Virus record (IMG/VR): IMGVR_UViG_2931736537_000001
Coordinates: 77,695 to 141,694 of that record
Length of the DNA stretch: 64,000 nt
From: a virus
Taxonomy: Duplodnaviria > Caudoviricetes
Direction: 5' to 3' (one strand)
Positions within the stretch are counted from its first letter, which is position 1. Every line of letters begins with the position of its first letter. Position numbers and translations under genes: made by a program. Below are positions 1 through 32,783 of this stretch, piece after piece. Under the pieces are notes generated by a model. It saw only the letters and a program-made list of their open reading frames with translations. It made no database searches and was not told the DNA's origin.

Positions 1-2
1 CC

Positions 3-983
3 GCGGGCGATGAGCATGGTGCCCAGCCGGGTGACGTGGGCGTTGTTGGCGCCCGGGCCGAAGACGCCGACGCCGGGGAAGGCGTCCTTGGCGGGCTTGC
101 TCGGTGCCGGCGTGCTGCCGGTGCCGCCCAGGATCTTCCGGGTGTCGACCGCACCGGGGTCGCCGTGGTCGTTGCCCGGGACGTGGGCGTGGGCGAAGTG
201 GCCGCCCTTGTTCTGCCAGGTGCTGCGCGAGCGCGCCGAGTAGCCGCCGGGGTACTTCGGCGGGGCACCGGCCGGCCACACGTCGGGGACGCCCCAGGAG
301 CGGGCGGCGGCCAGGATCTTCTGCCAGCCCGGCTTCTTCGCCGGGTCCCAGCCGGTCGTCCAGGGGTTCTTGGCGTACGCCAGGACCTCGATCTGGATGT
401 TGACGCGGCCTTCGCGGTTCGTCCGGCGGCTGCCGTCGTTGCGCAGGGCGCGGGCGCTCTGGTTGAGCGGTCCGAACTGGCCGACGCGGTCGGTGACCGG
501 GCAGTAGATCAGGTGCGGTTCGGAGGCGACTCGGATCAGGTACGAGCCGATCGACTCCAGGTACTTGCCGCCGGCCGGGGACTCGGTGCTGTGGTGGGTG
601 ACCCGCGGCGGGTTGCCGGGGGTGTCCATCGCCCCGCCGATAACGCCGTCGCCGAGCCGGATGGCGCCGGAGATCCACGCGGTGCCGGTGGCGCCGCGCG
701 GCAATTCACCGGCCGGCGGGAGGTCGTCGGCGACGGCCCGCGGCTCGGGGTCGGGCATGTAGGCGGGCGCGGGGGCGGCGTCGACCGGCTCGTACCAGTC
801 CAGGTCGCCGTCCTCGCGGAGCACGAACAGCGCGCCGGGGCGGCTGGGGTGCTCGACGGTGAACCGGGGGCTGGTGTCGGCGGCCGCGATGGCGCGGACC
901 TGGTCGAGGTGGTCCTGGGTGACCTCGCCGCAGTAGGTGACGGACTGGTCGGGGTGGACGATGGCAGCGTGGAAGGCGGACAT
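3..983 (-). CDS. Endolysin (amidase-type, with start of a peptidoglycan-binding domain); runs off the window edge
   Basis: Manual translation from ATG 983: MSAFHAAIV...RVTHHSTES...PHLIYCP...IQIEVLA...GHFAHAHVPGNDHGDPG...FGPGANNAHVTRLGTML. Zn-amidase His motifs; no stop before position 1, so absent from the ORF track. Confidence 0.85.
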   Translation of the reverse strand, partial: MSAFHAAIVHPDQSVTYCGEVTQDHLDQVRAIAAADTSPRFTVEHPSRPGALFVLREDGDLDWYEPVDAAPAPAYMPDPEPRAVADDLPPAGELPRGATGTAWISGAIRLGDGVIGGAMDTPGNPPRVTHHSTESPAGGKYLESIGSYLIRVASEPHLIYCPVTDRVGQFGPLNQSARALRNDGSRRTNREGRVNIQIEVLAYAKNPWTTGWDPAKKPGWQKILAAARSWGVPDVWPAGAPPKYPGGYSARSRSTWQNKGGHFAHAHVPGNDHGDPGAVDTRKILGGTGSTPAPSKPAKDAFPGVGVFGPGANNAHVTRLGTMLIAR

Positions 984-998
984 GCGTGACGCTCCTCG

Positions 999-1814
999 TC
1001 AGGCGTGGAGTTGGATCGCGTCGACCTGCTCGCGCAGCGCGACGTAGGTGGACAGGCGCAGGAAGAAGTCGCCGCCTTGGCCCCAGGCCGGGCCCCAGGA
1101 GTTGCGCAGCCGCAGCACGGTCCGCTCCGGGACGACGCGGCCGTCGCTGTACTGGGCGACCTCCTCGAGGCCGATGGCACACACCTCGTGGCCGCCGGCG
1201 AGGCCGGAGGTCCGCCAGTACGGGACGGTGTCGACGAAGCCGTCCGCTGCGGGCGTGAACCAGGCGTTGAACCAGGGCAGACCGAGCAGGACCGGCCCCT
1301 TCTGCAGGGCGGCGGCCAGCGCCGCGGCGTCCAGGGCGTGGGTGTAGGAGCCGATCAGGCCGCGGCTCTTCAGGACGCGGGCGACGCCGAGGCCGGAACT
1401 GCCGCTGTCGGCCGGCGGCCACTGGTAGGGCACGAACTCGTCGACGGCGGTGGCCTCGGAGTACAGCTGCAGCGCCCACTGCTCTGCGGCGACCGCGTCG
1501 TCGGTGGGCAGTCCCGCCCGCTCGAGGGCGGGTGCGTCGAGCAGGACGGACAGGGCCGCCGCCGCGGCGTTCGCCGTGCAGGAGCCGACGGCGTCGACGT
1601 CCCGGGTGCCGGTGATGGTGGAGGTGTGGATGCCCTGGGCGAGCAGGTCCTGCTGGTTCAGGACGGGGATGGCGGGCTGCCAGCGCACCGGCTGCAGCGC
1701 TTCACCACCGTGGGTCTCGCGGTGGGCCAGTGAGCGGGCGTCGAGGACCTGGTGGCGGCCGAGCGCCGGATGGACGTCGTAGTGGCGTACGAGGACGCCG
1801 TGCGTGGTGGGCAC
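999..1814 (-). CDS. Papain-like (C1) cysteine peptidase
   Basis: GSCTANA, GGHEV and RNSWG..WG motifs give the Cys-His-Asn triad. Confidence 0.8.
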   Translation of the reverse strand: MPTTHGVLVRHYDVHPALGRHQVLDARSLAHRETHGGEALQPVRWQPAIPVLNQQDLLAQGIHTSTITGTRDVDAVGSCTANAAAAALSVLLDAPALERAGLPTDDAVAAEQWALQLYSEATAVDEFVPYQWPPADSGSSGLGVARVLKSRGLIGSYTHALDAAALAAALQKGPVLLGLPWFNAWFTPAADGFVDTVPYWRTSGLAGGHEVCAIGLEEVAQYSDGRVVPERTVLRLRNSWGPAWGQGGDFFLRLSTYVALREQVDAIQLHA

Positions 1815-1946
1815 CGTCTGGTCCGCTTCTCCCCCGCGCCCCGATGGCTGTGTCCTCCGGTCCGCGCAGTGGCGGAACGGCCGGAATCCCTCGGGGGGTG
1901 GTGCGGACCGCGAAGCGGTGGCGTTGGGACGGAGGGTCGTCCGCAG

Positions 1947-1964
1947 GTGCCGTGATCAATGATA
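1947..1964 (-). promoter_or_regulatory. Putative late promoter motif (lysis cassette)
   Basis: Minus strand TATCAT-TGATC-ACGGCAC; same layout upstream of portal, scaffold and ParB-MTase. Confidence 0.5.
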
Positions 1965-2015
1965 GGTGCGGCCCGATGGGCGCCAGGCCCGCGTGCCCGG
2001 GCCCGCCGGTGCGGC

Positions 2016-3350
2016 TCAGGTGCCGTCGATGAGGCGTTCGGCGAGGAACGGGCTAAACGTGCCGGCGGGGGTGTCGGCGGGGGCGATGCCGCACTGCCCG
2101 TCGCTGTCCCCCGGGTACTTGATCCAGAGCAGGTACTCGGCGCCACCGACGCCGATGGAGCTGGGGACGCCGAGGCGCCGCCCGGCGGGGTTGCAGTAGT
2201 CGACGTGCTGGCCGCGGTCGTCCATCGCTCCGTTGCCGTTGCGGGCGGTGTCGATGACGAAGGTGACACCGGGGACTCCGGCGGCTGCGAGGGCGGCGAC
2301 GACCTGCTGGCCGTACTGACAGGAGATGTCGGTGGAGTCGAAGTTGCTGACGCCGATGGCGATGCGCCTGGTCGCGGCGACGCCGCCCCGGATGAGCTGG
2401 GCGGCCATTTGGACGGGGCGGAGCCAGGTGGCGTTGCCGGCGTCGAGGTACGCCTGGACGCGGGGTCTCGCGGCGAGGGCCTGTGCGATGTACGTGCACA
2501 GCTCGTACCGGGTTGCCCGGGCCTCCGGGGTGGGCAGTTGCTCGGCCTGGGCCAGGGAGTCCGGCTCGACGATGACGATCGCCGGCCGGTCCCCGAGCCC
2601 GGCGACGAAGGCGTCGACCCACGCCTTGTACGCCTCGGGGGTCGCCGCGCCGCCGCTGCTTTCGCCTCCGTTGTCCCGCCAGTACATGGCGTACGCGGCC
2701 AGGATGGGGACCTGCCCGGCCGCGGCGGCCGCGGCGACGTACGCGTCGACGTCCGTCTGGATGGTGGTGTTCCAGTCGCCGAACCAGCGGGCGCCCGGAC
2801 GCCGCGCTATCGATTGGCGGATCTTCGCGGCGCGGCCGTCGGTGGGGTTGGCCGCCAGCCACTTCGCGGCGTTGCTGTCGGGGTCGACGTAGAAGCCTTC
2901 TCGGATGGTCGACGTGGTGAGCCGGACCTGGGCGAAGGTGATGGTGACGGGGCTGGCCTGCCCCATCTGGAAACTGACCTGCCCGGCCGCGGTGTCCAGG
3001 TCGGACACGAAGGTGTACACGAAGCTCGTGTCGCTCATCCCGAGGGTGATGGTCTTGTCCAGGGCCGGGGTCCACGGGTCGACGCCGAGCCCGACCTGCA
3101 CCCGGAGCTGGGCGCCAGCCTGCGAGGCCCTCGCCGTGAAGCTCAGGGTGTACCGGGCGCCCTTGCGCAGCACGATGTTGTCCTGCCCGAAGGGCGCGTC
3201 CCAGAGGTTCAGGGCATCGGTGGTGGCCACGGCGTCCATGCCGCCGGGGCCGGGCGCGATGGTCACCATGGCGGGGTCGCCGGCCCACCAGGAGGCGGTG
3301 CCGTCGGTGAAGTCGGGGTTGTCGATCAGGTCGCCGTACATGCCGGCCAT
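2016..3350 (-). CDS. CBM4/9-like domain + glycoside hydrolase family 6 (cellulase), no signal peptide
   Basis: FYVDPDS, ARWFGDW, Y..RD..G.S.GG, IVEPDSL, YLDAGN..W, VSNF, IDTARNGNG, CNP.GR.LG, LWIK.PG.SDG; N-terminal LIDNPDF...YTLSFTARAS jelly-roll; RBS AGAGGAG. Confidence 0.9.
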   Translation of the reverse strand: MAGMYGDLIDNPDFTDGTASWWAGDPAMVTIAPGPGGMDAVATTDALNLWDAPFGQDNIVLRKGARYTLSFTARASQAGAQLRVQVGLGVDPWTPALDKTITLGMSDTSFVYTFVSDLDTAAGQVSFQMGQASPVTITFAQVRLTTSTIREGFYVDPDSNAAKWLAANPTDGRAAKIRQSIARRPGARWFGDWNTTIQTDVDAYVAAAAAAGQVPILAAYAMYWRDNGGESSGGAATPEAYKAWVDAFVAGLGDRPAIVIVEPDSLAQAEQLPTPEARATRYELCTYIAQALAARPRVQAYLDAGNATWLRPVQMAAQLIRGGVAATRRIAIGVSNFDSTDISCQYGQQVVAALAAAGVPGVTFVIDTARNGNGAMDDRGQHVDYCNPAGRRLGVPSSIGVGGAEYLLWIKYPGDSDGQCGIAPADTPAGTFSPFLAERLIDGT

Positions 3351-3364
3351 GAACGCGGTCTCCT

Positions 3365-5647
3365 CTACTTGGTGTAGGTCACCCGCAGCTTGGGCGGATA
3401 GGTCTGGCCGGCCCCCCTGAAGGCGCCGTAGTAGGTCCTGTTCGTGGAGTTCGGATCGAGCGCGACCCCCCTCCATCGCGTGCTGTCGAAAACCGACGTG
3501 ATGTCGACCCACTTGCCTTCGTTGCGGCGCCACGAGACGGTCTTTGCTTCGGAGTCGCTGGAGAACTTGGCGGGTCGGCTGGTGTGGGAGTGGGCCTTGA
3601 TGACCGCGCTGCCGCCGGACGCGTAGTACCAGTGCTCCGCGTACAGGTAAATTTCCGCTCTCTGGATGGTGGCGCCGGCCAGGTCTGTGCCCAGGGCGGC
3701 GGGGAATCCGATCAGGGACGCCTGGACTCCGTTGTTGGAGCTGTAGTAGCCCTGCATGCACTTGGCGCCGTAGTAGGAGTTGTAGCCGGAGCGGTTGGCG
3801 TAGGAGCCCGACCAGCTCGCCGTGTAGGTCTTGGTGTACTGACGCACCGGGTCCGGTTCGCTGCCACCGCCGGTGTTGTAGCCGCCGGTCTCCGGTACGT
3901 GCGGTCCGATGTCCTCGACGTACAGAACGCCCAGGGCGGTCGAGGAGCCGTAGAGGTCGACGGTCTGGCCGGACGGTCCGCCCGCGCACCTGAAGGTGAT
4001 GAGCAGCCGGTGGAGCCCGGCGCCGAATCCGCCGCCGTTCCGGACGGCTTCCAGCCGTACTCTCTGGCTCGTGGCCAACGGCATGGGGTACGTGGCCAGC
4101 TGCAGCTGTGGGGAGCTGACGGTGGGCTTCCCGGTCTTGCCGTCGCGCAGGCGGATCTGGATCTCGCCGCCGGCCGCGGACGGATCCGCAATGGCGTCGA
4201 AGACGACCCGGTACATGCGGTCGGTCTCGGCCTCGAAGGCGAGTTCAACGAACCCGATCTCGCTGGTGCCGCCGGTGACGCTGGCGGCCTGGTAGTCGAT
4301 GGCGAGCAGCCCCCGGGGGCGGTCGCCGAGGAACGCGGAGATCGGCTGGCCGCCGACCGTGAGGCCGCCAGCCACGCTCACGTCGGCGAAGGCGGCGTTG
4401 CCCTGGTCGTCGATGGTGGCGACGGCGGTGCCGCCATTGCGCAGGGTGAGGTACTGGGGCTCGCCGGTGACCAAGGAGACCGCTTCCTCGCCGGTCTCGT
4501 CGTACAGCCGGACCCCTTGCGGCCCGACTTCGGCGCGGGCGCCGCCGGTGACCCGGCCGAAGATGGCGGTCGCCTCCGCGTTGTCGAACACCACCCAGCC
4601 GCGGGTGGCCTCGGACGCTTCCAAGCACACGACGGCCTGGGTGGCGCCCTGCGGCGCGGCGACCTGCCCGGAGATGCGCTGCCAGCGTCCGGGCTCCGGC
4701 GCGACGGCCTCCACGACTCCGTATCCGAGGACGGTGCCGGCGGCGCTCTCGTAGCGGGCCAGGATCTTCACTGCCTGCGCGGCGAGGTCCTCGGAGATCA
4801 GGAGGTCAATGCCGAGGGCGAACTGCTGACCTGGCAGGACGGGGACCGTGGCCAGGGGGAGGGTGAAGTAGGTGGCGGTGTCGGCGGTGCAGTCGCACAG
4901 GACACCGACGCCGGTCCGGTTGCCTGGTGCCAGGGCCCAGGGGGCGCCCGCGGCGGCGATGGTGCTGGCGGTGGCTGCGCTCTCGAAGCCCGGGTCGGGG
5001 ATGAGGTTGGTTCCCTGGCCGACGGCTATCTGGTCGGGGGTGACCGCGCCGACGGCCAGGTGCGGCGTGACGATCGCGCCGACGGCGATGTGGCCCTCCT
5101 GGATGGCGCCGTTGCCGACGTCGCCGGCCGCTGCCCGGCGGGCGGCCGTACGGGTCGCGGCCGAGGCGACGCTCGGGGTACCGGAGGTGTTGACCGCGAC
5201 GAGCCGTACCCAGATGTCGTCGTAGTAGTTGGTGGCGATGGTGACCGAGGCCCCGGAGGCGGCTTCGATCGTCGCGGCCGGCCACATCACGTCCGGCTCG
5301 GTGTCCTCGCCGGTCACCAGGTGCACCTGGACGCGGGACAGGTCCAGCGGTGCGACGGTGTCGGCGTCGGCGAAGGCGCCGTCCCAGGTGATGCGCAGGC
5401 CGCCGAGGATGGGCTCGGCCTGCGGGGCCGACGGTGTGGGCGGGCGGGGCCCGTTGACCGCGACGACGCCGCTGGTGCCGTCCGGCTGCTGCCCGATGAC
5501 GGCGCGCAGCGAGCCGTCCACGTCGTACACCTCGACGGCGCCGTCCTCGATGGAGGAGTAGGCGAGCTGGGACGTGCGGCTCTGCTGGCTGATGAGCCGC
5601 TCGAGGTTGGCGATGCGCCCGGCCAGTCTCGCCAAGTCGTTGGCCAT
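3365..5647 (-). CDS. Minor tail / receptor-binding protein with internal CBM-like domain
   Basis: Start MANDLARLAGRIANLER; FN3-like segment, NLIPDPGFES domain, C-terminal PKLRVTYTK; position after baseplate genes. Confidence 0.75.
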   Translation of the reverse strand: MANDLARLAGRIANLERLISQQSRTSQLAYSSIEDGAVEVYDVDGSLRAVIGQQPDGTSGVVAVNGPRPPTPSAPQAEPILGGLRITWDGAFADADTVAPLDLSRVQVHLVTGEDTEPDVMWPAATIEAASGASVTIATNYYDDIWVRLVAVNTSGTPSVASAATRTAARRAAAGDVGNGAIQEGHIAVGAIVTPHLAVGAVTPDQIAVGQGTNLIPDPGFESAATASTIAAAGAPWALAPGNRTGVGVLCDCTADTATYFTLPLATVPVLPGQQFALGIDLLISEDLAAQAVKILARYESAAGTVLGYGVVEAVAPEPGRWQRISGQVAAPQGATQAVVCLEASEATRGWVVFDNAEATAIFGRVTGGARAEVGPQGVRLYDETGEEAVSLVTGEPQYLTLRNGGTAVATIDDQGNAAFADVSVAGGLTVGGQPISAFLGDRPRGLLAIDYQAASVTGGTSEIGFVELAFEAETDRMYRVVFDAIADPSAAGGEIQIRLRDGKTGKPTVSSPQLQLATYPMPLATSQRVRLEAVRNGGGFGAGLHRLLITFRCAGGPSGQTVDLYGSSTALGVLYVEDIGPHVPETGGYNTGGGSEPDPVRQYTKTYTASWSGSYANRSGYNSYYGAKCMQGYYSSNNGVQASLIGFPAALGTDLAGATIQRAEIYLYAEHWYYASGGSAVIKAHSHTSRPAKFSSDSEAKTVSWRRNEGKWVDITSVFDSTRWRGVALDPNSTNRTYYGAFRGAGQTYPPKLRVTYTK

Positions 5648-5652
5648 GGGGG

Positions 5653-6741
5653 TCAGCTCCCGTAGGTGAAGCGGTCGGCGCGGGCGAGTTGGAGGGTGAT
5701 GCGCTCGGGGGCCTTGCCCTGGGGTGGGCGCAACGTCCAGCTGGTGATGCGGCACCAGCCGTCGAAGTCGGACCACTGGTCGTGGAGGGACACCCGTACG
5801 TCGTCGCCGACCTGCCAGGACCCGATGCGGGCGGCGGGGTGGTCGATGACCTCGATCTCGGTGACTTCGCCCATGACCTGGCGGGAGGTGCGTTCGGTGC
5901 GGGCCCGGGCGGCGAGCCGGTCGTTGCCCTTTTCCGCCGGGACCTCGAGGACGTGTTCCAGGCGCAGTCGGCCGTTGCGGATCGCGTCGATCGCGCGGCG
6001 GCGTCCGCGGCCCTCGCCGGCGCCGAGCGCGATGACGACCTGGGCGTAGTCGTCGGCGTCGTAGCTGACGGGCACGGTGGTGGCGACGTTGACGCCGGAG
6101 GTGAAGGAGATGTCCGTGCGCCTGGTGCCCAGCCTGGGCCAGCCGAGTCGGATCCGACCGGCCGGTCGGCCGCTGGACCAGTCCGTGGTCTCCGTCCACT
6201 CCGGGCCGCCCTCGGTCTCCGTCATGTCGTCGACGACCTCGCCGAGCACTGGGGACTCCCACCAGGCGGTGCTGTAGGGCTCGGCGGTGGTGCCGACCTT
6301 TGCCTTGCTGGTGGTGGCGTCGACGCTGACCCGGAGGTTGCCGTCCGGCTGGGCCTGCGCGTAGGCCCAGGCGTCGCGGATGACCTTGCAGGGGTCGGCG
6401 TTGGTGTACGGGCCTCGGCCGTCGAGGTTGCCGTGGGTGTCGTGCCGGCGGTGGAGGTAGCTGCCCCAGCCGGAAGCCTCGACCGGGTAGCTGGCTCCTT
6501 CCGGCTCGGCCCGCCACAGCACACCGCCCCACAGCAGCGTGCGGTCGCGTTCGGCGGTCAGCACGGTGTTGCCCGGGTCGAGCTGGGAGCCCAGCAGGTG
6601 CGCGAAGCGCGGCTCGAGGCGGCCGGAGAACTCCCCGGCCGCGTTGCGGGCGGTGCCGAATTCGACCTGCGACAGCGGCAGGTCCGCGGCGAGCAGCTCG
6701 CCCGTGAGGGCATGCCAGCTGCGGAACCGGTACGTCTGCAC
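5653..6741 (-). CDS. Minor tail (baseplate hub/Tal-like) protein
   Basis: TAERDRTLLWGG.LW and WQVGDDVRV motifs; synteny. Confidence 0.7.
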   Translation of the reverse strand: MQTYRFRSWHALTGELLAADLPLSQVEFGTARNAAGEFSGRLEPRFAHLLGSQLDPGNTVLTAERDRTLLWGGVLWRAEPEGASYPVEASGWGSYLHRRHDTHGNLDGRGPYTNADPCKVIRDAWAYAQAQPDGNLRVSVDATTSKAKVGTTAEPYSTAWWESPVLGEVVDDMTETEGGPEWTETTDWSSGRPAGRIRLGWPRLGTRRTDISFTSGVNVATTVPVSYDADDYAQVVIALGAGEGRGRRRAIDAIRNGRLRLEHVLEVPAEKGNDRLAARARTERTSRQVMGEVTEIEVIDHPAARIGSWQVGDDVRVSLHDQWSDFDGWCRITSWTLRPPQGKAPERITLQLARADRFTYGS

Positions 6742-6744: not shown

Positions 6745-7674
6745 TTACCTCACGCCCTCGTTGAACTCGATGTCCGCGATCAGGGAGGTGGAGCCGTCGA
6801 CGCTGAGGTCACCGGTCTCGATCTTCGACATGTACGTCTGCACGTACAGGGTCTGGGTGGTGCCGCGTATGGCTGCGGGGATGGACAGGCTGTCGGCGAG
6901 GACGATCGTGTTGCGACGGGTGGAGGTTCCCTGGTCGTCGTCGATGGCGGTGTTCTGTCCCTGCACCGTCCCGAAGACGTTCTGCATGTTGGCGTATACG
7001 TTGCTCTTGGTCAGCCGCAGGCCCGCGAAGGTGGTTACGAGCTTGGCGCTGGTCGCCCATGACGGCACGGCAATGCTCCAGCGCGCGGAGGACGGCCAGT
7101 TGTGCCACTTGTTGTCCTGGTACGTCAGCGTGCTGAGCGAGCCGGGGAAGGACGTGTACAGCCGACGCTCGCGGCGCGGGTTGGCGACCGCCCGCACGTC
7201 CTTGATCATCGAGTCGGTGATGACCGCCGTGTTGGCGGGTATGTCGATGCGGGCTAGCGGGACGGCCGTCATGCCGGCGGGCACCGTCGTGGTGGTGGCC
7301 GGCACGTTGCTGACGACGTGGAAATATCCGATCTCGTCCTTCTCCGGATCGCGGGTGCCTTCGTACTCGGGGTCCTCCACGCGCAGGCACACCAGGTCGG
7401 AGCGGGCGGTCGCGCCCGTGGGGGCGACGGGCACGATGGCGTCGCCGACGTTGTACTGGGTGTACGAGCCCTGCCCCCAGGTGGCTCCGCGGATGACCGC
7501 CGAGCCGTCGCGGACGCGTACGCCGGCCCCGGGGGTGGCCAGCTGGTAGACCTTGAGGTCGTCGCCTTCGGTGACGCCTTGGGAGCCGCGCGCCAGGTCG
7601 CGCACCATCATGCGGAAGGCGCGGGCGGCGTGGGTGCCGCCGTGGGTCATCAGCGGCGGGTTGATCAGCGTCAC
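6745..7674 (-). CDS. Minor tail protein
   Basis: RSDLVCLRVEDPEY and PLARIDIPA...ITDSMIKDVR motifs typical of actinophage tail proteins. Confidence 0.7.
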   Translation of the reverse strand: MTLINPPLMTHGGTHAARAFRMMVRDLARGSQGVTEGDDLKVYQLATPGAGVRVRDGSAVIRGATWGQGSYTQYNVGDAIVPVAPTGATARSDLVCLRVEDPEYEGTRDPEKDEIGYFHVVSNVPATTTTVPAGMTAVPLARIDIPANTAVITDSMIKDVRAVANPRRERRLYTSFPGSLSTLTYQDNKWHNWPSSARWSIAVPSWATSAKLVTTFAGLRLTKSNVYANMQNVFGTVQGQNTAIDDDQGTSTRRNTIVLADSLSIPAAIRGTTQTLYVQTYMSKIETGDLSVDGSTSLIADIEFNEGVR

Positions 7675-7693
7675 GGGTCGTGCTCCTTCGGGG

Positions 7694-8590
7694 TCACAGG
7701 GCGGCGTGGGCCGCACGCCAGGTGATGGCCAGCCGGGTGCTGTTGGAGTAGTTGCGGGCGGTCCACCAGAGCTCGGTGGTGCCGGGCGGGACGGTGAAGT
7801 CCTCGAGTCGGCTGGCGGCCGACAAAGCGGTGGCGAGGTTCCCGGAGCCGTTCTTGAGGACCCATCGGGTGCCGGGGCGGGTCTCGATCTCGATGCGCTC
7901 GCCGGTGGCCAGCGACGTGCCCAGCTCGATGACGCGGCCGGACTCGACGTGCCGGATGCGGGGGTTGGTGCACGGGCCGGTGATGACCAGCGACGGCCAG
8001 GCCGGCCGGTCCCCGTCGTTGGTCATCCAGCCGCGCCGCTCGTCGGGGATGGCCACGCCGGTGGTGAGCGGTGCCACGAGCGGGGCGCGGAAGCCTCCGA
8101 GGCCGTCCGTGGACAGCGGCAGGGTCAGCGAGTAGGCGTCGTCGGAGTGGTACAGCGGGTCGACGGCGACGAACTCCAGGTCGAGGGGGATCCAGCCGTT
8201 GACGGTGTTGGCGGTGCTGGTGGCCTCGACTCGGCGCAGCCGCCCGTACAGGCGGCGGGCGGGCCGGCCGGGCCAGCTCATCCGCAGGACGCTCATCGCG
8301 CCGGGCGTGAGGCGGACGTCCGGGTTGTCGGCGGCGCGCTGCAGCTGGGCGAGGAGGTCCAGGCCGCGGCCGGGGTCGCCTGGCGTACGGATGCCGGCCT
8401 CCATGCGGATGGTGCGCGCGCCGTACAGGTCGACGCCGGGGAAGACGCCGTCGCCGGCCGGGTTCTCCGTGTCCTGCGAGCGCTGCTCGGGCCCGCCGAT
8501 GCCCTCGACCTCTCCGACGGGGATGTCGGTGCCGGCGCCCATGAGGACGCCGTCGACGTCGAACTGCCACTCCTTCAGGTCGGCCATCAC
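7694..8590 (-). CDS. Distal tail protein (Dit-like)
   Basis: Directly after tape measure; FVAVDPLY, NDGDRPAWP...ITGP..NPRI. Confidence 0.8.
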   Translation of the reverse strand: MMADLKEWQFDVDGVLMGAGTDIPVGEVEGIGGPEQRSQDTENPAGDGVFPGVDLYGARTIRMEAGIRTPGDPGRGLDLLAQLQRAADNPDVRLTPGAMSVLRMSWPGRPARRLYGRLRRVEATSTANTVNGWIPLDLEFVAVDPLYHSDDAYSLTLPLSTDGLGGFRAPLVAPLTTGVAIPDERRGWMTNDGDRPAWPSLVITGPCTNPRIRHVESGRVIELGTSLATGERIEIETRPGTRWVLKNGSGNLATALSAASRLEDFTVPPGTTELWWTARNYSNSTRLAITWRAAHAAL

Positions 8591-11500
8591 GCCCGCCCTC
8601 CTCGCTGGGCGTTGCGCAGCCGCCGCATGACCTCGGCGCCGAACTGCTCGGGTGTCGCGCCGGGAGCGGCGGCCATGGTGACGGGCATGCTGCCGATCAG
8701 CGCGGCAGGCTGGCGGATGACGATGACGCGGACCCGGCTGGACTGGGCGTCCTGGGCACCGGTAAGGGTGTAGCCGAACCGGCCGGCGACGTCGTCGAGC
8801 ACGGCGGTGGCGCGGTCGCGCCTGCCGAGGCCGAGGGGGATGTACGCCTCTCCCCCGGTGCTCGGCTCCGCGAAGCGGACCAGGCCGGCGCTGGTGGAGT
8901 AGATGCCCTCACGGATGCCGCCGTCCGCGAAGGCCAGGCCCTTGTTCGCCGCGCCGAGGTCAGCGAGAAATTTCGTCGCCCGGGAGCCGAGGGCGCTCTG
9001 GATCTGCGACTTCGCCAGGTTGGCGATGTCGATGATGTCCTCTTCGCTCAGCCCGGTCTTCTCGGCGACGTCGTGAATGCCCACCTTGCTGCTGGTGACG
9101 GCGGAGATGATCTGGACGAGGTCCTCGACCTGGTCGGAGCTGAGCGTGGTGTTGGCCTTCTTCGCCGCGCTGTTGGCCGCCGCAGCCTTCTTGTTGTCCT
9201 TGACCGCGGCCGCGGCCAGGTCGGCAGCGTCCTGGTCGTTCTGCTCGGCCAGGCGGGCTGCGAGGTCGCCGTAGCCGCGGGCGGCCAGGGTCGCCAGGTT
9301 CTTCTGGAACGCGGTCTGGTCCTTGACGGCGTCCGTGAGCTGCGAGGTGTATTCCGGCAGCGACGCCTTGGCCGCGTTGGCCAAGTTCTGCAGCTCCTTG
9401 GACATCTGCTTGAGGTACTTGGAGCTGCCGGTGGCCATCTGCCGGGTCAACTCGATGCCCTCGTCGCCCATCTCGGCGAGCGCGTCGGCGACGTCCTGGC
9501 CGGCCCGCCGGGCGACGGTGTCCAGATTCTTCCGCCACGCGGCAAGCGCGTTGTTCGACTGCGCGAGCTTCTTCGTGAAGATCGAGAGGCTGAAGTTGCC
9601 CTTCTTGTCGTTGGAGGCGTTGATCAGGCCGGACAGCGTGTACTTGTTCGCGGCCGTCCCGGACGACGAGTAGGAGAAGCTCATGCCGCCGTCGGCGTAG
9701 CGGGTGATGCCCCCGTCGGCGTTCCACGCGATTCCACTGGGGTCACCACCGAGGCGGCGTACAACTTCCTCGGTGATCCGACGCGACCGCGGGCGCTTTG
9801 ACCTGGCGAAAGGCACGTACGCCTCGCCGTGAGTCTCGTCCTCCGCCCATATGCGCCAGTCGCCGCCGCGGGCGATCTGCGCGATGTGGTTCTCGCGGCG
9901 CAGGCCGCCGTCGGCGTAGAAGTCGACGATGCCGCCGTCCGCCTGCGCACCGAAGTTCCTCGCCTGCTGTTCGATGAGGTCGGCGGTGGTCTGCGTCTGA
10001 GTGTGGACCGTCTCGTAGATGCTGACGTGCCGGGTGGTGATGGTGATGGATTTGTCGCTGAGGGCGTCCCGGGCGCCCTGCACGGCGCCGATGTTGGAAA
10101 GCGCCGTACCTGTCGCCGCGGTCACCACGACGCGGCCGTCGGGGAGGGTGCGGGTGGTGAAGCCCACCGCGTTCAGCGCCTGGATGGCCGTCTGCGACAG
10201 GGTCTTGACGGTGACGCTCTTTGCTCCGGGCGTGGCCCTGATCTTGGCGATCACCGCGTCGAGGTCCTGCACCGCGTTGGCGCTGTTCGCGTCAATGGTG
10301 ATCGTCTTGTTCTGCAGACCGTCGCGCGTCGCCTTGAGGCCCTCGAGGCGGTCCTTGGCCGTGCCGGTCTCCGCGGTCACCTCGAACTGGCCGTCGGGCA
10401 GCCGGGTGACCTCGAACCCGAGGGACTCCAGCACGGTGACGGCGTCCTTGGTGAGGGCGTCGACCTTCACGCTCTTGGCGTCCGGGGTCGCCTCGATCTG
10501 CTCGATGACCGCGTTCAGGCCGGCGAGCGCGTCTTCGTTTCGCATCTCCAGACGGGTCGTCTTCTCGTCCGGGATCTGCAGGTAGCTGTCGGCCAGCGCC
10601 TCGGCCTGTTCACGGGTCAGGCCCATGGTGTCGGCGGCGTCGATGAAGGTCTTGCGGCCCTTCTCGTAGATGCCGGTGACGTCTTCCCAGGAGCGGCCCT
10701 GCTCACGGGCGGCGGTGGTCGCCGCATCCGTGTTCGCCGCCAGTTCGCTGAGCGTCTTCTCGGCCTCGCGCGCCTTGTCGTTGCCCAGGTCGAGCTGCCC
10801 GTCCCGCATCTTGAGGACGTTGTGGTGTTCCTTCGCGGCCTTGGCGACGTCGTCGATCGAGGCTTCGAACGCGCTCATGGCGCTGCCGGCCTTACGGTTC
10901 ACGTCGTTGAGGGCGACGATGCTTTGCCGCAGACCGTCCGCGCTGGCCTTCTGGGCGTCCAGGCGGGCCTGGGTGTCCTGAGCGGCCTTGCCGAAGATCC
11001 CCATGCTGGCCGCTGCGAGCGACTGTTCGAACTCCAGGTCTTCGACTGCGGACTTGTACTGGTCCATCTGCCCGGTGAACTCACCGACGTCGTGGCCGCC
11101 CTTGGCGTACGCCTCCTTCAGCCGCTCGTACGCCGCGGCGGCCTGGTCGGCCTTGCCACCCTTCACCAGGTTGGCCAGGCCCTCGTCGATGGCGTCGAGG
11201 TTCTCCCGGGCCTCCTGCCACGGCGTGGAGTCCATCAGGGTGAGGCTGAAGATCTTGACCAGCGCGTTCTGGACGTTGTCGGCCGTGCTGGGGTCGGTGA
11301 TGTTGCGGATCTTGTCGTAGAGGTCGTCCAGGTCCTGACCGAAGTTCTTCGACAGCTCGCCGGTGACCTTCCCGGACTGGCCCAGCTTCCCCAGGGAGGT
11401 GGTGAGCCTGTCGATGTCCGGCGGAGCCTCCTTGCCCATCTCCATCAGCTCGTGGATCGCGGCGGCGGCCAGACCGATACCGGCGACGATGACGGAGGCC

Positions 11501-13221
11501 CGGGCGGCGGTGCCCAGGCTCAGGAAGGCCGCGCGCAGGCCGGCCAGGCCGCCGCCAGCGGCGACCGACGTGGCGTGCAGCGCGGCAATACGGGCCTGCA
11601 CGGTGGCCAGGCCGCCGGCTACCGCCGCGATACCGGCGCCGGCGAGCTGCACGAGCTTCAGCGCGGCGGCGACCTGGATGATCGTGCCGACCAGTTCCGG
11701 GGGCAGGGCCGCGACCAGCTTGGCGGCGGCGTTGACCAGGGTCAGCATCGTGGGTCCGGCCTCTGCGGCGCCCTCGAACAGGTTGCCCACGGCGTCGCCG
11801 AGGTTGGACAGCGTCTCGCGGGCCTCGTCGCCGTTGGCCCGGATGTAGTCCATGACCTGGGCCAGGGGGCCGCCGACCTCGCCTTCGGACATCAGCCGCA
11901 GGACGTGCACGAGCCGGTCGCCCATCCGGTCCAGGGTCTGGTCCGTGAAGTCGGCGAACCGGTCGCTGGCTGCGTCGAAGCCGGGCGTATTCACTGCTCC
12001 GCCCGCGAGGGTGACGAGCCGGTCCAGCTCCCGGGACGCCGACTTCACCTCAGGCGTGAGGTGCGGCAGCAGCGCGTCCATGAGCGCCAGTGAGTGGATG
12101 ACCGGCTGCATGGTGGAACCGCTGAGACTGTCCGACCACTGCTGGTAGTTGTCCTTCAGCTCGGCCAGGGCCATCGCGGCGCGCTGTGCCTCGGGCGGGA
12201 GCTGGGCGAGCTGGGACTGGTACTCCGCCTGCGCTTCGGCGGCCTTCTGCGAGGTCGCGCCGTGCTGGCGCACCGCGTCCTGGTACTTCGTCGCGGCGTC
12301 CGACACCTCGGAGATGGCGGTGAGCTGCCCGGCGACGGCCAACCCGAAGGCGGTGGCCGCGGCGCCGGACGCGGCGAAGATGCCGGGCAGCGGGGCGAGG
12401 GCGGTCGCCAGCGGGATGACTGCCGGCGCGAGCAGCATGAGGCCCTGGAGGCCGCCGCCCGCGTCGCCGCCACCACCGCCGCCGCCGAGCGTGCGGGGTA
12501 GGTCTCCCAGGCCGCTGGTATCGGCGCGGACCCGGACGGTGATGGTCTGGTCCGTCTGCGCCCAGCGCACGGCGGCGCTGACGTCCCGGCGCAGTTGCAT
12601 CGGGTCCGCGAGCCCGATCGGGATGTCGATGCGGTGGCCCCACGAGGCCCAGCGCACGGCGTTCTGTACGTCCCGGCGCAGTTGCTGAGCGTCGACGAGC
12701 CGTAGACCGACGGCCAGGCCACGGTCGGGGTCGGCGCCGCCCACTGCGGCCTGTACCTCGGCGCGCAGGCTGCTTCCGTTGCCCCGCAGTCCGATCGGCA
12801 CTTCGATGCGGTGGCCCCACGAGGCCCAGCGCACGGCGTTCTGCACGTCCCGGCGCAGTTGCTGAGCGTCGGCGAGCCGCAGACCGACGGCCAGGCCCTG
12901 GCCGGTGCCGGCGGCACCGACCGCGGCCTGTACGTCGCTGCGCAGGGTCGCCGCGTCGACGCGGAGCCCGACGTGGATGTCCGAGGTTGCCTCGCGACGC
13001 AGCTCGGCCAGTTCCCGGCGAAGGTCACTGACGTCGCCGCGGGCGTCGCGGACCTCCCGGGCCAGCGTCGTCAGGCTGCCGCTGCCCAGGGCGTCCAGGT
13101 TCCGGCGGGCGTCGGCCAGTTCGCGGGAGAGGTCGCGGGCCTGGTTGGTGGAGCGGCGCAGGGTGCGCACGAGGTTGTCGCTGTTGCCGGTCAGGGAGAC
13201 CGACAGGTTCCAGGCGACCAC
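8587..13221 (-). CDS. Tape measure protein
   Basis: ~1544 aa, Ala/Leu-rich helical, ADGG..GEAY.P motifs; GTG start after RBS AGGAGG; follows the tail chaperones. Confidence 0.9.
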   Translation of the reverse strand: MVAWNLSVSLTGNSDNLVRTLRRSTNQARDLSRELADARRNLDALGSGSLTTLAREVRDARGDVSDLRRELAELRREATSDIHVGLRVDAATLRSDVQAAVGAAGTGQGLAVGLRLADAQQLRRDVQNAVRWASWGHRIEVPIGLRGNGSSLRAEVQAAVGGADPDRGLAVGLRLVDAQQLRRDVQNAVRWASWGHRIDIPIGLADPMQLRRDVSAAVRWAQTDQTITVRVRADTSGLGDLPRTLGGGGGGGDAGGGLQGLMLLAPAVIPLATALAPLPGIFAASGAAATAFGLAVAGQLTAISEVSDAATKYQDAVRQHGATSQKAAEAQAEYQSQLAQLPPEAQRAAMALAELKDNYQQWSDSLSGSTMQPVIHSLALMDALLPHLTPEVKSASRELDRLVTLAGGAVNTPGFDAASDRFADFTDQTLDRMGDRLVHVLRLMSEGEVGGPLAQVMDYIRANGDEARETLSNLGDAVGNLFEGAAEAGPTMLTLVNAAAKLVAALPPELVGTIIQVAAALKLVQLAGAGIAAVAGGLATVQARIAALHATSVAAGGGLAGLRAAFLSLGTAARASVIVAGIGLAAAAIHELMEMGKEAPPDIDRLTTSLGKLGQSGKVTGELSKNFGQDLDDLYDKIRNITDPSTADNVQNALVKIFSLTLMDSTPWQEARENLDAIDEGLANLVKGGKADQAAAAYERLKEAYAKGGHDVGEFTGQMDQYKSAVEDLEFEQSLAAASMGIFGKAAQDTQARLDAQKASADGLRQSIVALNDVNRKAGSAMSAFEASIDDVAKAAKEHHNVLKMRDGQLDLGNDKAREAEKTLSELAANTDAATTAAREQGRSWEDVTGIYEKGRKTFIDAADTMGLTREQAEALADSYLQIPDEKTTRLEMRNEDALAGLNAVIEQIEATPDAKSVKVDALTKDAVTVLESLGFEVTRLPDGQFEVTAETGTAKDRLEGLKATRDGLQNKTITIDANSANAVQDLDAVIAKIRATPGAKSVTVKTLSQTAIQALNAVGFTTRTLPDGRVVVTAATGTALSNIGAVQGARDALSDKSITITTRHVSIYETVHTQTQTTADLIEQQARNFGAQADGGIVDFYADGGLRRENHIAQIARGGDWRIWAEDETHGEAYVPFARSKRPRSRRITEEVVRRLGGDPSGIAWNADGGITRYADGGMSFSYSSSGTAANKYTLSGLINASNDKKGNFSLSIFTKKLAQSNNALAAWRKNLDTVARRAGQDVADALAEMGDEGIELTRQMATGSSKYLKQMSKELQNLANAAKASLPEYTSQLTDAVKDQTAFQKNLATLAARGYGDLAARLAEQNDQDAADLAAAAVKDNKKAAAANSAAKKANTTLSSDQVEDLVQIISAVTSSKVGIHDVAEKTGLSEEDIIDIANLAKSQIQSALGSRATKFLADLGAANKGLAFADGGIREGIYSTSAGLVRFAEPSTGGEAYIPLGLGRRDRATAVLDDVAGRFGYTLTGAQDAQSSRVRVIVIRQPAALIGSMPVTMAAAPGATPEQFGAEVMRRLRNAQRGGRA
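12575..12905 (-). repeat. Internal repeats in the tape measure N-terminus
   Basis: GLAVGLRL.DAQQLRRDVQNAVRWASWGHRI..PIGL twice (180-bp period) plus a partial third copy. Confidence 0.8.
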
Positions 13222-13244
13222 CGCCGCTTCCTCCTTCCTGGCTG

Positions 13245-13628
13245 CTACCTGCGGTGGTCCCGGAGTGCACGCGCCCGGGTGCGCATTTCGTACACGGCCC
13301 TGGGGAGCAGGCCGACCTTGACGCCGAAGCCGTGCGGTCCGTCCGGAACGTTTTCGCGTTCGTGGGCGATCAGTTCGCAGCCGGGGCAGCGGCTGGTGGA
13401 GCTGACGTAGGCGAACCGGTCGCCGCCGGCGTCTTCGTCCCACTCGTCGCTGCGGGTTCCGCACGACGCGCAGGTCGCCCGCATCAGGTCCTGGTAGGCG
13501 AGGGCCTTGGCGCGGTCGGCGGGGCTCCAGGTGCCGTCACCGCCGTGGAACTGGCTGTGCGGGATGCCCCACCGGTCACAGAGTTCGAGTTCGGCTCTCA
13601 GCCGCGGGTCGGCCCGGAGCCTTTTCCC
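13245..13628 (-). CDS. Tail assembly chaperone, -1 frameshift extension (gpT-like)
   Basis: No convincing own start; entered via G GGA AAA at 13628-13622; carries two CxxC pairs. Confidence 0.75.
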   Translation of the reverse strand, partial: GKRLRADPRLRAELELCDRWGIPHSQFHGGDGTWSPADRAKALAYQDLMRATCASCGTRSDEWDEDAGGDRFAYVSSTSRCPGCELIAHERENVPDGPHGFGVKVGLLPRAVYEMRTRARALRDHRR

Positions 13629-22819: not shown

Positions 22820-22845
22820 GTCGTCCCTCCGGACAAGTCGGCCCC

Positions 22846-22950: not shown

Positions 22951-22969
22951 TGGTCGAACCCGAGCCAAA

Positions 22970-32761: not shown

Positions 32762-32783
32762 GGCAACTCCGTCCACCCCCACA

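Follow-up and report, generated by a model that had tools for sequence, protein, structure and literature searches.

Why does the tail operon of a tailed virus end in a gene for a cellulose-degrading type of enzyme with no means of export, and what might that enzyme cut? The gene lies in a 64,000-nt stretch of phage DNA (the window). The original prediction was that its product is a virion-associated or lysis-released depolymerase that opens the apical glucan of a Streptomyces host. The host part of this prediction was borne out. The Streptomyces genome that bears a 93-97% identical copy of this element carries cslA-glxA-cslZ, and its CslZ orthologue (339 aa) adjoins glxA and cslA; the host lineage thus has the CslA/GlxA glucan system. 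CslA-GlxA is reported to make beta-1,4-glucan in vitro (PMC11022532), and the CslA glycan is described as a component of an outer wall layer (PMC7300013). For CslZ, a Streptomyces member of glycoside hydrolase family 6 (GH6), the reported substrates are peptidoglycan, celluloses, and alpha-chitin, and a part in opening the wall is also reported (PMC9040799; PMC11022532). Mutants of cslA, glxA, and cslZ are reported for S. lividans or S. coelicolor (PMC9040799; PMC7300013). In the open-access literature we found nothing relevant on a cellulase or GH6 enzyme of Streptomyces phages or on cslA as a phage receptor, and no virion proteomics paper for these phages. To our knowledge, few Streptomyces phage receptors have been described.

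The features of the locus, all on the minus strand, are as follows.

1..983, minus strand: endolysin, extending past the window start (genome 77214-78692); phrog_17214, E 7.6e-54; PG_binding_1
999..1814, minus strand: peptidase, first gene of the lysis cassette; phrog_16701, E 2.5e-24; Peptidase_C1 E 0.0019, below the cut-off
1815..2015, minus strand: 201-nt gap between GH6 and the lysis cassette; promoter/terminator scan empty
2016..3350, minus strand: CBM_4_9-GH6 endoglucanase gene without a leader, 444 aa (P0001), as predicted from translation, Pfam, and PDB sequence search
2082..2870, minus strand: GH6 catalytic domain, aa 161-423, with Asp226, Asp264 (EPD), Asp303, and Asp417; Pfam PF01341, E 3.5e-50
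2952..3332, minus strand: CBM_4_9 module, aa 7-133; Pfam PF02018, E 7.1e-14
3351..3364, minus strand: 14-nt spacer with Shine-Dalgarno AGGAG straight after the fibre stop codon, read from the sequence
3365..5647, minus strand: tail fibre / minor tail protein, 760 aa; phrog_38009 "tail protein", E 1.6e-25
4553..5017, minus strand: fibre domain D2, aa 211-365, CBM-like jelly roll, variant "D2-A"; profile against PDB and Atlas features
5653-6741 and 6745-7716, minus strand: minor tail proteins; phrog_1885 and phrog_25212
7694-8590, minus strand: Dit; phrog_5577/phrog_33, Pfam SPP1_Dit
8587-13464, minus strand: tape measure; phrog_10780

The frame at 2016-3350 has 444 codons and a codon-position GC of 0.66/0.54/0.95; the fibre gene, read from the ATG at 5647, has 0.66/0.54/0.93. 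Intact GH6 motifs, including the EPD motif, and an N-terminal CBM-like domain had been noted from the letters, and Pfam searches agreed on both. The Glyco_hydro_6 match (PF01341) scores 172 bits against a cut-off of 27 and covers model positions 5-300 of 305, and the CBM_4_9 match at aa 7-133 scores 52.8 bits against a cut-off of 25.9. These were the only two domains that Pfam found in the protein, with no peptidoglycan-cleaving domain. A PDB sequence search matched GH6 endoglucanases (6fao, 2.8e-59; Thermobifida fusca E2, 1tml, 3.4e-50; Mycobacterium tuberculosis Cel6, 1up0, 2.6e-49), and the CBM part matched the CBM4 of laminarinase 16A (1gui) and of CenC (1cx1). Four Asp residues, Asp226 (RD), Asp264 (EPD), Asp303 (DAG), and Asp417 (DG), line up with those of T. 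fusca E2 and 6fao, and among 49 homologues without a leader they are retained in 47, 48, 49, and 49. We take the roles of these residues, with the EPD Asp as catalytic acid, to be those given in the T. fusca Cel6A literature. In the PDB alignment the EPD motif reads VEPDSL and the usual RDC motif reads RDN, so the Cys to Asn change noted earlier stands at aa 227. The phage protein has DAGN and PGDSDG where T. fusca E2 has DAGH and PGEADG; neither variant is phage-specific, because secreted relatives have both.

The AF2 model of the protein has a pLDDT of 90.5 and a pTM of 0.80, with the CBM modelled as a beta-sandwich (all-beta strands at aa 29-146). Its best Foldseek matches were the open-cleft endoglucanases 6fao, 1up0, and 2boe, with TM scores (target) of 0.88-0.92, compared to 0.71 or less for cellobiohydrolases. 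Judged by these matches, the modelled fold is of the open-cleft (endo) type rather than the enclosed tunnel (exo) type. The phage protein is a GH6 family member with a CBM_4_9 module, and hydrolysis of beta-1,4-glucosidic bonds with inversion is its predicted activity.

Loss of the export signal distinguishes the phage enzyme from its cellular relatives. The protein begins MAGMYGDL with the CBM starting at aa 7, whereas the 13 cellular homologues listed have a hydrophobic or lipobox-like stretch of about 20-60 aa ahead of the equivalent "ELVVNGTF" (judged by eye), in agreement with the earlier claim that a secretion signal is absent. A GH6 tree had been suggested as a check, and in it the phage protein falls in a monophyletic leaderless clade of 49 members (support 100/99), whose sister is the secreted Streptomyces CBM4_9-GH6 enzymes (support 97/91). 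All 49 members have 2-4 residues ahead of "YGDL" and the CBM, and no leader. Cys227 and Cys271 are present in 0/49 of the leaderless proteins and in 21/21 of the sister-clade proteins. Within-clade conservation of the CBM is 65.4% in the leaderless clade and 55.3% in the secreted sister clade. The tree points to a single capture of the gene by a phage lineage from the secreted clade. Capture from host CslZ was considered and rejected: CslZ orthologues group in a clade of their own (100/99), and a joint clade was rejected by the AU test (p 0.0045). Nor is the phage protein itself a CslZ, as it is without a leader, has a CBM, and is located in a tail operon. A Rosetta-stone fusion was also rejected, as the 15 longer homologues comprised 13 GH9-GH6 proteins, one CBM2-type protein, and one glycosyltransferase-deacetylase-GH6 protein, with no tail domains among them.

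The GH6 gene closes the tail operon, as had been claimed, being the last gene after the fibre and ahead of the lysis genes. The fibre gene ends ...TYTK-TAG and is followed by AGGAGACCGCGTTC (14 nt) and the GH6 ATG; the predicted gap and ribosome-binding site were both found, with AGGAG abutting the stop codon. A purine-rich Shine-Dalgarno sequence and a spacer of 12-23 nt occur in 13/13 related loci listed. At nine loci the spacers between the fibre stop and GH6 were 12, 14, 14, 14, 14, 16, 19, 21, and 23 nt, and GH6 is set within the tail/host-recognition module, last after the fibre, in 9/9. These lengths give no constant frame, and fusion of fibre and GH6 by read-through or frameshifting was rejected. 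The separate promoter motif that the original prediction placed before the lysis genes was not recovered: there were no promoter-like sites in 900-6000 by a sigma-70-type scan, which covers Streptomyces-type promoters poorly. A consensus scan of the same interval found no terminator-like sites, and a stem-loop directly 3' of the GH6 stop folded no more stably than shuffled sequences (z 0.03). Beyond the window, after the endolysin, is a holin-like gene with a weak Phage_r1t_holin match (L003); an 81-aa ORF outside the window at this locus has a C-terminal stretch that is hydrophobic by eye and may encode a membrane protein.

Tail fibres were examined by domain. The whole fibre had no sequence match in Pfam or the PDB, and its AF2 model was poor (pLDDT 58.5, pTM 0.28). 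The D2 region was more informative, and its profile A4 matched the central fibre gp20 of mycobacteriophage Douge (8zdo) at aa 217-317 (E 1.1e-4) and CBM22 xylanases (E 0.006-0.012) in the PDB. Atlas features placed a CBM_4_9 cluster first (0.95), with 26/30 matches falling in that family set. D2 therefore appears CBM-like and is putatively sugar-binding. When the profiles of the GH6 protein and the fibre were compared, no homology emerged (probability 1.8%), which indicates that D2 is no duplicate of the CBM in the enzyme.

Comparison of related phages was used to follow the GH6 gene and D2 together. An IMG/VR scan seeded with the conserved C-terminal domain of the fibre gave 43 loci at 59% identity or more. 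The eight loci with GH6 all have a D2 that is 66-75% identical to that of the window, whereas D2 is 31-45% identical in all 35 loci without GH6 (34 of them assessable downstream). Among the 42 assessable phages, D2-A and GH6 are present together in 8/8, and GH6 occurs in 0/34 without D2-A. GH6 is thus an accessory gene in phages with this fibre family, carried by 8 of 42. The original prediction named sporadic occurrence among relatives as evidence against a role for the gene. Occurrence is sporadic in that carriers are few and an IS4/5-type insertion interrupts one copy, but the distribution is non-random and exactly follows D2 type. No substitute depolymerase was found in the slot of phages without GH6, which holds only small ORFs (phrog_38457, unassigned) and Amidase_2 endolysins.

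A tail-backbone tree was built from two minor tail proteins of 18 loci. GH6 presence changes five times on this tree, and the D2 type switches alongside in 5/5 independent pairs; a sign test on the five contrasts gave p 0.0625, which is the minimum attainable with five pairs. Other parts of the fibre do not follow GH6 in this way. Identity of the C-terminal domain is 48-96% within GH6-carrying loci and 50-78% between groups, and the fibre segments between D2 and GH6 do not separate carriers from non-carriers. In pairwise comparisons of 12 loci that carry GH6, identity of the catalytic domain correlates best with that of D2 (Spearman 0.84, compared to 0.24 for a backbone protein). The co-variation of GH6 with D2-A could partly be linkage, because D2 and GH6 share one 3-kb block. 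The cassette is found on at least three tail backbones, in which the minor tail protein corresponding to 5653-6741 is 28-30%, 55-58%, or 69-100% identical to that of the window, and the genes downstream of GH6 differ from locus to locus. The proposed tie between GH6 and the tail fibre is upheld by the 12-23 nt coupling in 9/9 loci and the strict co-occurrence with D2-A, and the comparative data support a link to the fibre rather than to lysis.

Our preferred explanation, which we regard as about evenly balanced between right and wrong, is that the protein is an endo-beta-1,4-glucanase belonging to an exchangeable host-recognition cassette and that it cuts the CslA/GlxA glucan of the host. A phage lineage would have taken the gene from a secreted Streptomyces enzyme, removing the export signal and one disulfide, and for this reason we propose that the protein now folds in the cytoplasm. 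GH6 would be translated late, off the same message as the tail fibre, and together with the distal sugar-binding part of the fibre (D2-A onwards) it would form the exchangeable cassette. Its extracellular target would be the cellulose-like CslA/GlxA layer over the wall at growing tips, which we take as the only known beta-1,4-glucan in the host envelope. The glucanase could be either virion-borne or set free at lysis, and cutting the glucan may let a phage with a layer-engaging fibre reach the wall or escape dead-end binding. Since the GH6 gene is intact, leaderless, and moves with one version of the fibre, it most likely aids passage through the cellulose-like coat of the host; substrate, timing, place of action, and physical attachment to the virion are what we infer. 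Several points count against this explanation. Whether the in vivo product of CslA is pure cellulose is described as open (PMC11022532). No fibre-GH6 fusion was present among the 15 longer homologues, and the phage protein has no tail-anchoring domain, with a CBM and GH6 architecture that is the same as in secreted enzymes. The post-fibre slot also holds evident cargo, namely a terpene synthase, a BNR-repeat protein, or an insertion sequence. GH6 is dispensable in this phage group, with 34/42 assessable relatives lacking it, lysis genes come after it in the window and in several relatives, and the co-variation with D2-A has five independent contrasts behind it.

More tentatively, D2-A and the leaderless CBM4-GH6 enzyme may form a two-part "bind and cut" device that is carried by the virion and directed against the CslA/GlxA cellulose of hyphal tips. 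D2-A would bind the glucan or hold the enzyme by the enzyme's CBM, and the virion-borne glucanase would bore through the glucan at the tip. In that case this whole group of large plasmid-prophage-like phages would use the apical glucan as its primary receptor. We consider this stronger version possible, and doubtful in its full form.

Nearby lysis genes raise a different explanation, in which a cytoplasmic GH6 protein would be the first enzyme of the lysis cassette, released by the holin to cut the glucan lamella outside the peptidoglycan and so let progeny out of hyphae and pellets. A parallel is LysB of mycobacteriophages, which cuts an outer layer. The GH6 protein has no leader, as is the case for endolysins, and its gene in the window is 201 nt upstream of the peptidase-endolysin-holin genes. 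An endolysin lies 1.3-1.6 kb 3' of GH6 in L006 and L007, the next gene in L004 and L009 is phrog_2658 "hol-like chemotaxis" (read as holin-like), and CslA and MatAB glycans are described as an extra wall layer, which progeny would have to cross (PMC7300013). However, GH6 is not constantly linked to holin or endolysin genes across relatives. In L042, which lacks GH6, the fibre is followed at once by the same peptidase and endolysin (82% and 85% identity). GH6 is also found in phages with quite different endolysins, and in L005 and L010 the stretch from GH6 to the lysis genes holds unrelated genes, of which one lies on the opposite strand. A role in lysis also does not predict that GH6 presence matches the fibre D2 type in 42/42 assessable loci, and we consider it unlikely. 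Other occupants of the slot, namely a two-domain terpene synthase (L005), a BNR/Sortilin-like protein (L010), and an insertion sequence (L033), suggest that a host cellulase could have landed once in a hot spot at the tail/lysis junction and have no infection role, or provide some other service to the lysogen. A minority of relatives carry GH6, one copy is disrupted, and there is no PHROG family for phage GH6, all of which fit a passenger gene. We judge a passenger improbable, as a leaderless enzyme would be confined to the lysogen cytoplasm, which offers a cellulase nothing to cut. Loss of the leader and of one disulfide was clean, the catalytic residues were then kept in 47-49 of 49 proteins, and the CBM is better conserved than in the secreted sister (65.4% compared to 55.3%). 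Furthermore, the cassette is on at least three widely differing tail backbones, GH6 is never found apart from D2-A, and at every locus its translation is tightly coupled to that of the fibre gene.

Siphophages that infect Gram-positive hosts frequently have wall hydrolases in their tail proteins, and GH6 might resemble CslZ in attacking peptidoglycan, or some other wall polymer with beta-1,4 links, where the phage infects, as a virion-borne or released wall hydrolase and not a glucanase of the CslA product. The range of substrates reported for CslZ (peptidoglycan, celluloses, and alpha-chitin) is consistent with this (PMC9040799; PMC11022532). Among the GH6 enzymes considered, action on peptidoglycan is reported for CslZ alone, and the phage clade is separate from CslZ and joining the two was rejected (AU p 0.0045). 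The nearest relatives and the nearest solved folds are classical endoglucanases, and the retained CBM4_9 belongs to a module class that binds glucan or xylan chains, as in the matched CBM4 and CBM22 structures, which makes a wall polymer a quite improbable target. The enzyme and the CBM-like fibre domain might instead act on cellulose from plants in the soil and, for instance, release virions stuck to plant debris. Sequencing runs with small shares of the stretch are labelled as soil and rhizosphere metagenomes, which is a hint only, and no RNA run was among those listed. The gene may descend from secreted cellulases, judging from signal-bearing N-termini and database names. We found no specific support for environmental cellulose as the substrate, which would leave unexplained both the pairing of GH6 with one variant of the fibre, the organ of host recognition, and the tight coupling to the fibre gene; it appears very improbable.

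The role of the CslA/GlxA tip glucan is described as still being studied (PMC9040799; PMC11022532; PMC7300013). New in the present analysis are the leaderless GH6 clade, its origin from the secreted sister clade, and the pairing with D2-A. If this pairing is functional, it would identify the first surface-glycan target for Streptomyces phages and would show how a secreted host enzyme can become a phage tool through loss of its leader and a disulfide; the enzyme could also be a reagent to remove or probe apical glucan and to disperse fermentation pellets. If the pairing is linkage only, the locus would be a clean case of host-to-phage capture with a cargo hot spot at the tail/lysis junction. 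If the "bind and cut" device is real, it would be the first cellulose-dependent adsorption in a Gram-positive host and a depolymerase that joins the tail without a dedicated anchor domain.

Secreted CBM4_9-GH6 enzymes of Streptomyces, Kitasatospora, and Myxococcus (e.g., P0063 and P0078) have the same two domains as the phage enzyme and 45-50% full-length identity to it. Those of Streptomyces and Kitasatospora make up the sister clade (97/91), and DAGN and PGDSDG are common to both. The secreted enzymes have a leader or lipobox and both disulfide pairs, whereas the phage clade is without a leader and without Cys227 and Cys271 (49/49); their genes are presumably chromosomal and away from tail genes, whereas the phage gene is beside a tail fibre. 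Structurally characterized relatives, mgCel6A (6fao), T. fusca Cel6A/E2 (1tml, 2bod), and M. tuberculosis Cel6 (1up0), have 36-42% identity to the phage enzyme and an rmsd of 1.8-2.5 Å by Foldseek. Their catalytic Asp positions align with those of phage GH6, but unlike it they are secreted, and the phage enzyme is missing the first disulfide (RDC) found in T. fusca E2. CslZ is likewise a GH6 enzyme of the same host genus and is reported to act in or on the apical glucan and wall, but it is described as a lipoprotein with a signal sequence and no CBM (PMC9040799).

Two other phages invite comparison. Streptomyces phage Gilgamesh (MN234216), isolated on S. lividans, encodes gp72, annotated "glycoside hydrolase", which is 82% identical over its full length to the window GH6 and is a member of the leaderless clade, and gp71, annotated "hypothetical protein", which is 70% identical to the 760-aa fibre. 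Gene order is the same in both (tape measure, minor tail proteins, gp71, gp72), with a 16-nt spacer in Gilgamesh. By megablast, however, the two match only at 2022-5089 (GH6 and fibre aa ~186-760; 81.6% identity), and Gilgamesh is otherwise a different phage, with neighbouring tail proteins just 29-51% identical to those of the window. Its record gives no family, substrate, or role for gp72, and no paper on this phage was found in the open-access literature. In mycobacteriophage Douge, the CFP-NTD of gp20 (aa 165-321) contains the region matched by D2, and this domain is reported to be CBM-like and to bind host surface glycans (PMC13033339). The sequence match to D2 is weak and partial, and the published description of gp20 mentions no glucanase partner (PMC13033339).

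Erwinia amylovora phage S6 carries the glucanases gp095 (GH5) and gp094 (GH48), which are reported to act against host cellulose, its first receptor (PMC9544554). These glucanases sit in a variable host-recognition region, and infection is reported to need host cellulose synthesis (PMC9544554). S6 differs from the present phage in that its enzymes are GH5 and GH48 rather than GH6, its host is Gram-negative, it is an N4-like podophage, and gp095 is described with extra N-terminal domains. Cellulose dependence and CMC activity in S6 are reported from experiment (PMC9544554), whereas phage GH6 is known here from sequence. By analogy, phage S6 would be the closest functional model for the proposed glucanase, which travels with a tail fibre and would open the cellulose-like coat of the host.

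The window covers the final 64 kb of the 141,694-bp virus record (G+C 71.5%; completeness estimate 97%) and contains, on the minus strand, a complete late region of siphophage type.

Late-region genes in the window (coordinates, strand, product)
27202-28761 (-): large terminase
20972-23236 (-): portal
no coordinates given (-): scaffold of the siphophage late region
18462-19532 (-): major head protein
8587-13464 (-): tape measure
7694-8590 (-): Dit
6745-7716 (-): minor tail protein
5653-6741 (-): minor tail protein
3365-5647 (-): tail protein (fibre), 760 aa
2016-3350 (-): CBM_4_9-GH6 gene, directly after the fibre gene
999-1814 (-): peptidase, first gene of the lysis cassette (phrog_16701; weak Peptidase_C1, papain family, E 0.0019, below cut-off)
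extends past the window start (-): endolysin with PG_binding_1 domain

Beyond the window start lie a holin-like ORF and a second one of 81 aa, whose C-terminal part is hydrophobic as judged by eye. The peptidase also accompanies the endolysin at two other loci, L008 and L042. A promoter motif originally described ahead of the lysis genes was not reproduced by a scan with a sigma-70-type consensus, which covers Streptomyces-type promoters poorly. The phage also encodes a ParB-like/DNA methyltransferase fusion and an FtsK/SpoIIIE-like protein (31487-32797 and 42238-44778, both -), relatives occur on contigs of 125-152 kb in Streptomyces assemblies, and the record is weakly similar in nucleotide sequence to Streptomyces phage ZL12, a linear plasmid-prophage. 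Together these observations suggest a plasmid-prophage life style.

The GH6 reading frame encodes 444 residues (third-position G+C 0.95). Its start codon is set by 48 homologues with the same N-terminus and by the end of the fibre gene 14 nt upstream in another frame, the same gap as first described. CBM_4_9 (aa 7-133) and GH6 (aa 161-423) domains both score well over Pfam cut-offs, in agreement with the original prediction. A PDB sequence search aligned the protein with solved structures of GH6 endoglucanases (E 1e-50 to 1e-59), and these alignments confirmed that the EPD motif is intact and that RDC reads RDN. The reported lack of a secretion leader also held by eye: printed cellular homologues have a hydrophobic or lipobox N-terminal stretch followed by ELVVNGTF, which aligns with YGDLIDNPDF of the phage protein. 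Asp226, Asp264, Asp303, and Asp417 are conserved in 47, 48, 49, and 49 of 49 leaderless homologues (P0001-P0049, a set in which the window's protein recurs as P0002). The AF2 model has high confidence scores (pLDDT 90.5, pTM 0.80), and its top Foldseek matches are open-cleft endoglucanases (6fao, M. tuberculosis Cel6, and T. fusca Cel6A; TM (target) 0.88-0.92), while tunnel-forming cellobiohydrolases reach TM (target) <=0.71. From alignment and model, the phage enzyme looks functional and endo-acting.

A database search returned 309 proteins at E <=1e-10. Among the 120 listed, at least about 50 have 432-445 aa and 58-95% identity and were found in Streptomyces assemblies or in metagenomes, many of them on 125-152 kb contigs; the next tier among the matches listed (41-51% identity, 455-534 aa) is from Streptomyces, Kitasatospora, and myxobacteria. 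Relationships were examined with two trees: a quick one with 81 of 141 available rows (all genome-derived GH6 domains and every other database protein), and a careful one with 42 rows (LG+C20+F+G4), from which long-branch exo-type sequences and additional database rows were omitted. Leaderless proteins form a single clade in both (support 99 and 100/99), and its sister group is secreted Streptomyces/Kitasatospora CBM4_9-GH6 proteins (91 and 97/91). Because leaders are present in all outgroups examined, a single capture from a secreted enzyme with leader loss would be the simplest history. Cys227 and Cys271, the first disulfide pair, occur in 0/49 clade members, 21/21 sister proteins, and 48/49 and 43/49 other relatives, and the second pair is conserved in 49/49 and 48/49 of the leaderless clade; loss of the first pair would fit folding in a reducing cytoplasm. 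CBM identity is 65.4% within the phage clade versus 55.3% within the sister clade, and the catalytic domains have diverged to an equal extent (69.1% versus 70.6%), which is a weak hint of extra constraint on the phage CBM. CslZ, the GH6 lipoprotein of the host's own glucan system, was recognised in a carrier genome by adjoining glxA and cslA, and both trees place it elsewhere than the leaderless clade; a tree forcing the two together was rejected (delta lnL 19.8, p-AU 0.0045).

Several other GH6 proteins were encountered. The only further match among 50,697 phage records is in MT836874.1 (736-1629), a 10.5-kb unannotated contig obtained from human faecal samples and labelled "Bacteriophage sp."; its GH6 domain shares 39% identity with aa 138-443. 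The metagenomic protein P0136 (1048 aa) has glycosyltransferase-2/chitin-synthase-type domains, a polysaccharide deacetylase domain, and GH6 in one chain, which would make it a synthase-hydrolase fusion comparable with the cslA-cslZ pairing. One Streptomyces genome (G002) carries three separate leaderless copies (L028, L030, and L031; 452-480 bits to the clade profile), suggesting three related prophages or plasmid-prophages within one strain.

Wherever upstream sequence exists, the upstream neighbour of GH6 is a homologue of the 760-aa fibre (4/4 loci in each of two sets); a fifth viral locus begins inside GH6. The fibre-GH6 spacer is 12-23 nt in 9/9 loci, and a purine-rich ribosome-binding site adjoins the fibre stop in all 13 loci printed. 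Streptomyces phage Gilgamesh (MN234216) shares nucleotide similarity with the window only across 2022-5089, which covers GH6 and the fibre from residue ~186 on (81.6% identity); in the flanking tail proteins identity falls to 29-51%. Among the GH6 loci compared, the window-type peptidase and endolysin follow GH6 only in the near-identical L008. In the Gilgamesh-like L004 and L009, GH6 is followed by a small phrog_2658 gene ("hol-like chemotaxis"), which we read as holin-like; L006 and L007 have Amidase_2-type endolysins 1.3-1.6 kb from GH6, and L005 and L010 have intervening unrelated genes. Between GH6 and the lysis genes, L005 encodes a 759-aa two-domain terpene synthase (9834-12113, +; Terpene_syn_C_2, E 1.4e-110, two stretches) that presumably resembles geosmin synthase. 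About 470 nt past it lies what is left of another GH6 3' end (12585-12710; 43 aa). This remnant is 84% identical to the window's GH6 (the resident L005 GH6 is 67% identical) and has the appearance of a scar left when a cassette was replaced. In L010, on a Streptomyces alanosinicus contig, GH6 and endolysin are separated by an oppositely oriented gene for a 741-aa BNR/Sortilin-Vps10-repeat protein (11959-14184, -), which may be further glycan-active cargo in the same slot.

The GH6 gene is accessory, yet its distribution is non-random. A first IMG/VR scan with the fibre as query, using patterns derived from its CBM-like domain D2 (aa 211-365), found 13 viral loci with GH6 intact in seven, split in one, and absent in five. 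The split copy (L033:7294-7617 and 11959-12264; viral contig of 151,949 bp, also L076) is broken inside the CBM by an insertion of ~4.3 kb with an IS4/5-family DDE transposase and a DUF6192 protein; the database protein P0050 (325 aa), whose longest recorded contig is equally long, may be its truncated product. In the GH6-less L042, peptidase and endolysin of the window type (82% and 85% identity) directly follow the fibre. Domain-by-domain comparison identified D2 as the one fibre segment separating carriers from non-carriers: identity to the window is 65-93% in 12/12 loci with GH6 and 23-39% in 5/5 without. Segments between D2 and GH6 gave no such separation. Since the patterns came from D2 itself, the scan was repeated with the conserved fibre C-terminal domain, which was >=59% identical in 43 of 71 loci (12 of the 43 contigs already found by the first scan). 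All eight carriers among these have D2 at 66-75%, and all 35 loci without GH6 (34 assessable, one having no downstream sequence) have D2 at 31-45%; IMG/VR loci possibly include prophage fragments.

A backbone tree of two minor tail proteins from 18 loci has five changes in GH6 presence, all forced by supported branches, with every GH6-less phage sister to a carrier. D2 type switches with GH6 in 5/5 independent pairs, the contrasts on which the co-variation rests (sign test p 0.0625, the minimum for five pairs). In pairwise comparisons among 12 GH6-carrying loci, catalytic-domain identity correlated with D2 (Spearman 0.84), other distal fibre domains (0.63-0.66), fibre N-terminus (0.31), and backbone protein (0.24). 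Because the N-terminus tracks the backbone (0.86) and the distal part tracks GH6, the fibre is a chimera in which the first ~170-200 residues belong with the tail backbone, and the rest moves with GH6 as a putative host-recognition cassette. Within this cassette, GH6 accompanies one D2 variant, D2-A.

Profile hits for D2 are the mycobacteriophage Douge central fibre protein (8zdo, aa 217-317; E 1.1e-4) and xylanase CBM22 modules (E 0.006-0.012), and its language-model features fall among CBM_4_9 clusters (best score 0.95; 26/30 matches). The matched Douge region is inside a domain that its report calls CBM-like, with host-glycan binding shown (PMC13033339). Because of these similarities, D2 is most likely a glycan-binding module. 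D2 variants of GH6-less phages are only 18-47% identical to one another, a diversity that would be expected of a specificity domain.

To our knowledge, the product of CslA/GlxA, the Streptomyces system for a cellulose-like tip glucan, is the sole beta-1,4-glucan described in the host envelope. This product is reported to be a beta-1,4-glucan in vitro (PMC11022532), to be exposed at hyphal tips (PMC9040799), and to form an outer wall layer with PNAG (PMC7300013). Because of these properties, the favoured reading is that GH6 is the cutting partner of the D2-A fibre: the D2-A module would engage the CslA/GlxA glucan layer, and GH6 would act on that glucan.

Other roles were weighed against this cutting-partner reading. 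Action with the lysis cassette would fit the missing leader and the lysis-gene neighbourhood, but it leaves the D2 rule and L042 unexplained, and we consider it unlikely. That GH6 is a passenger at the tail/lysis junction is quite improbable; other cargo in the same slot (L005, L010, and L033) and one disrupted copy agree with it, but it accounts poorly for the clean leader removal, the conserved catalytic residues, the presence of the gene on several backbones, and its unvarying link with the fibre. A wall-directed enzyme with a peptidoglycan role borrowed from CslZ is very improbable, as the phage enzyme lies outside the CslZ clade.

The original prediction of a virion-associated or lysis-released depolymerase for host apical glucan stands in part. 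An intact leaderless enzyme tied to the fibre and host recognition by D2 co-variation favors it; the accessory nature of the gene does not. No anchor domain was found in the protein by Pfam or in the N-termini of clade members, and no fibre-GH6 fusion among 15 longer homologues, which counts against virion attachment. A sharper, partly supported reading is that GH6 belongs to the host-recognition cassette as an accessory glucanase specific to one fibre variant. Among phage enzymes, depolymerases and cellulases that attack host cellulose are already known, and the phage GH6 would be a variant of these. Erwinia phage S6 is a parallel, described as dependent on host cellulose and carrying GH5 and GH48 glucanases (PMC9544554).
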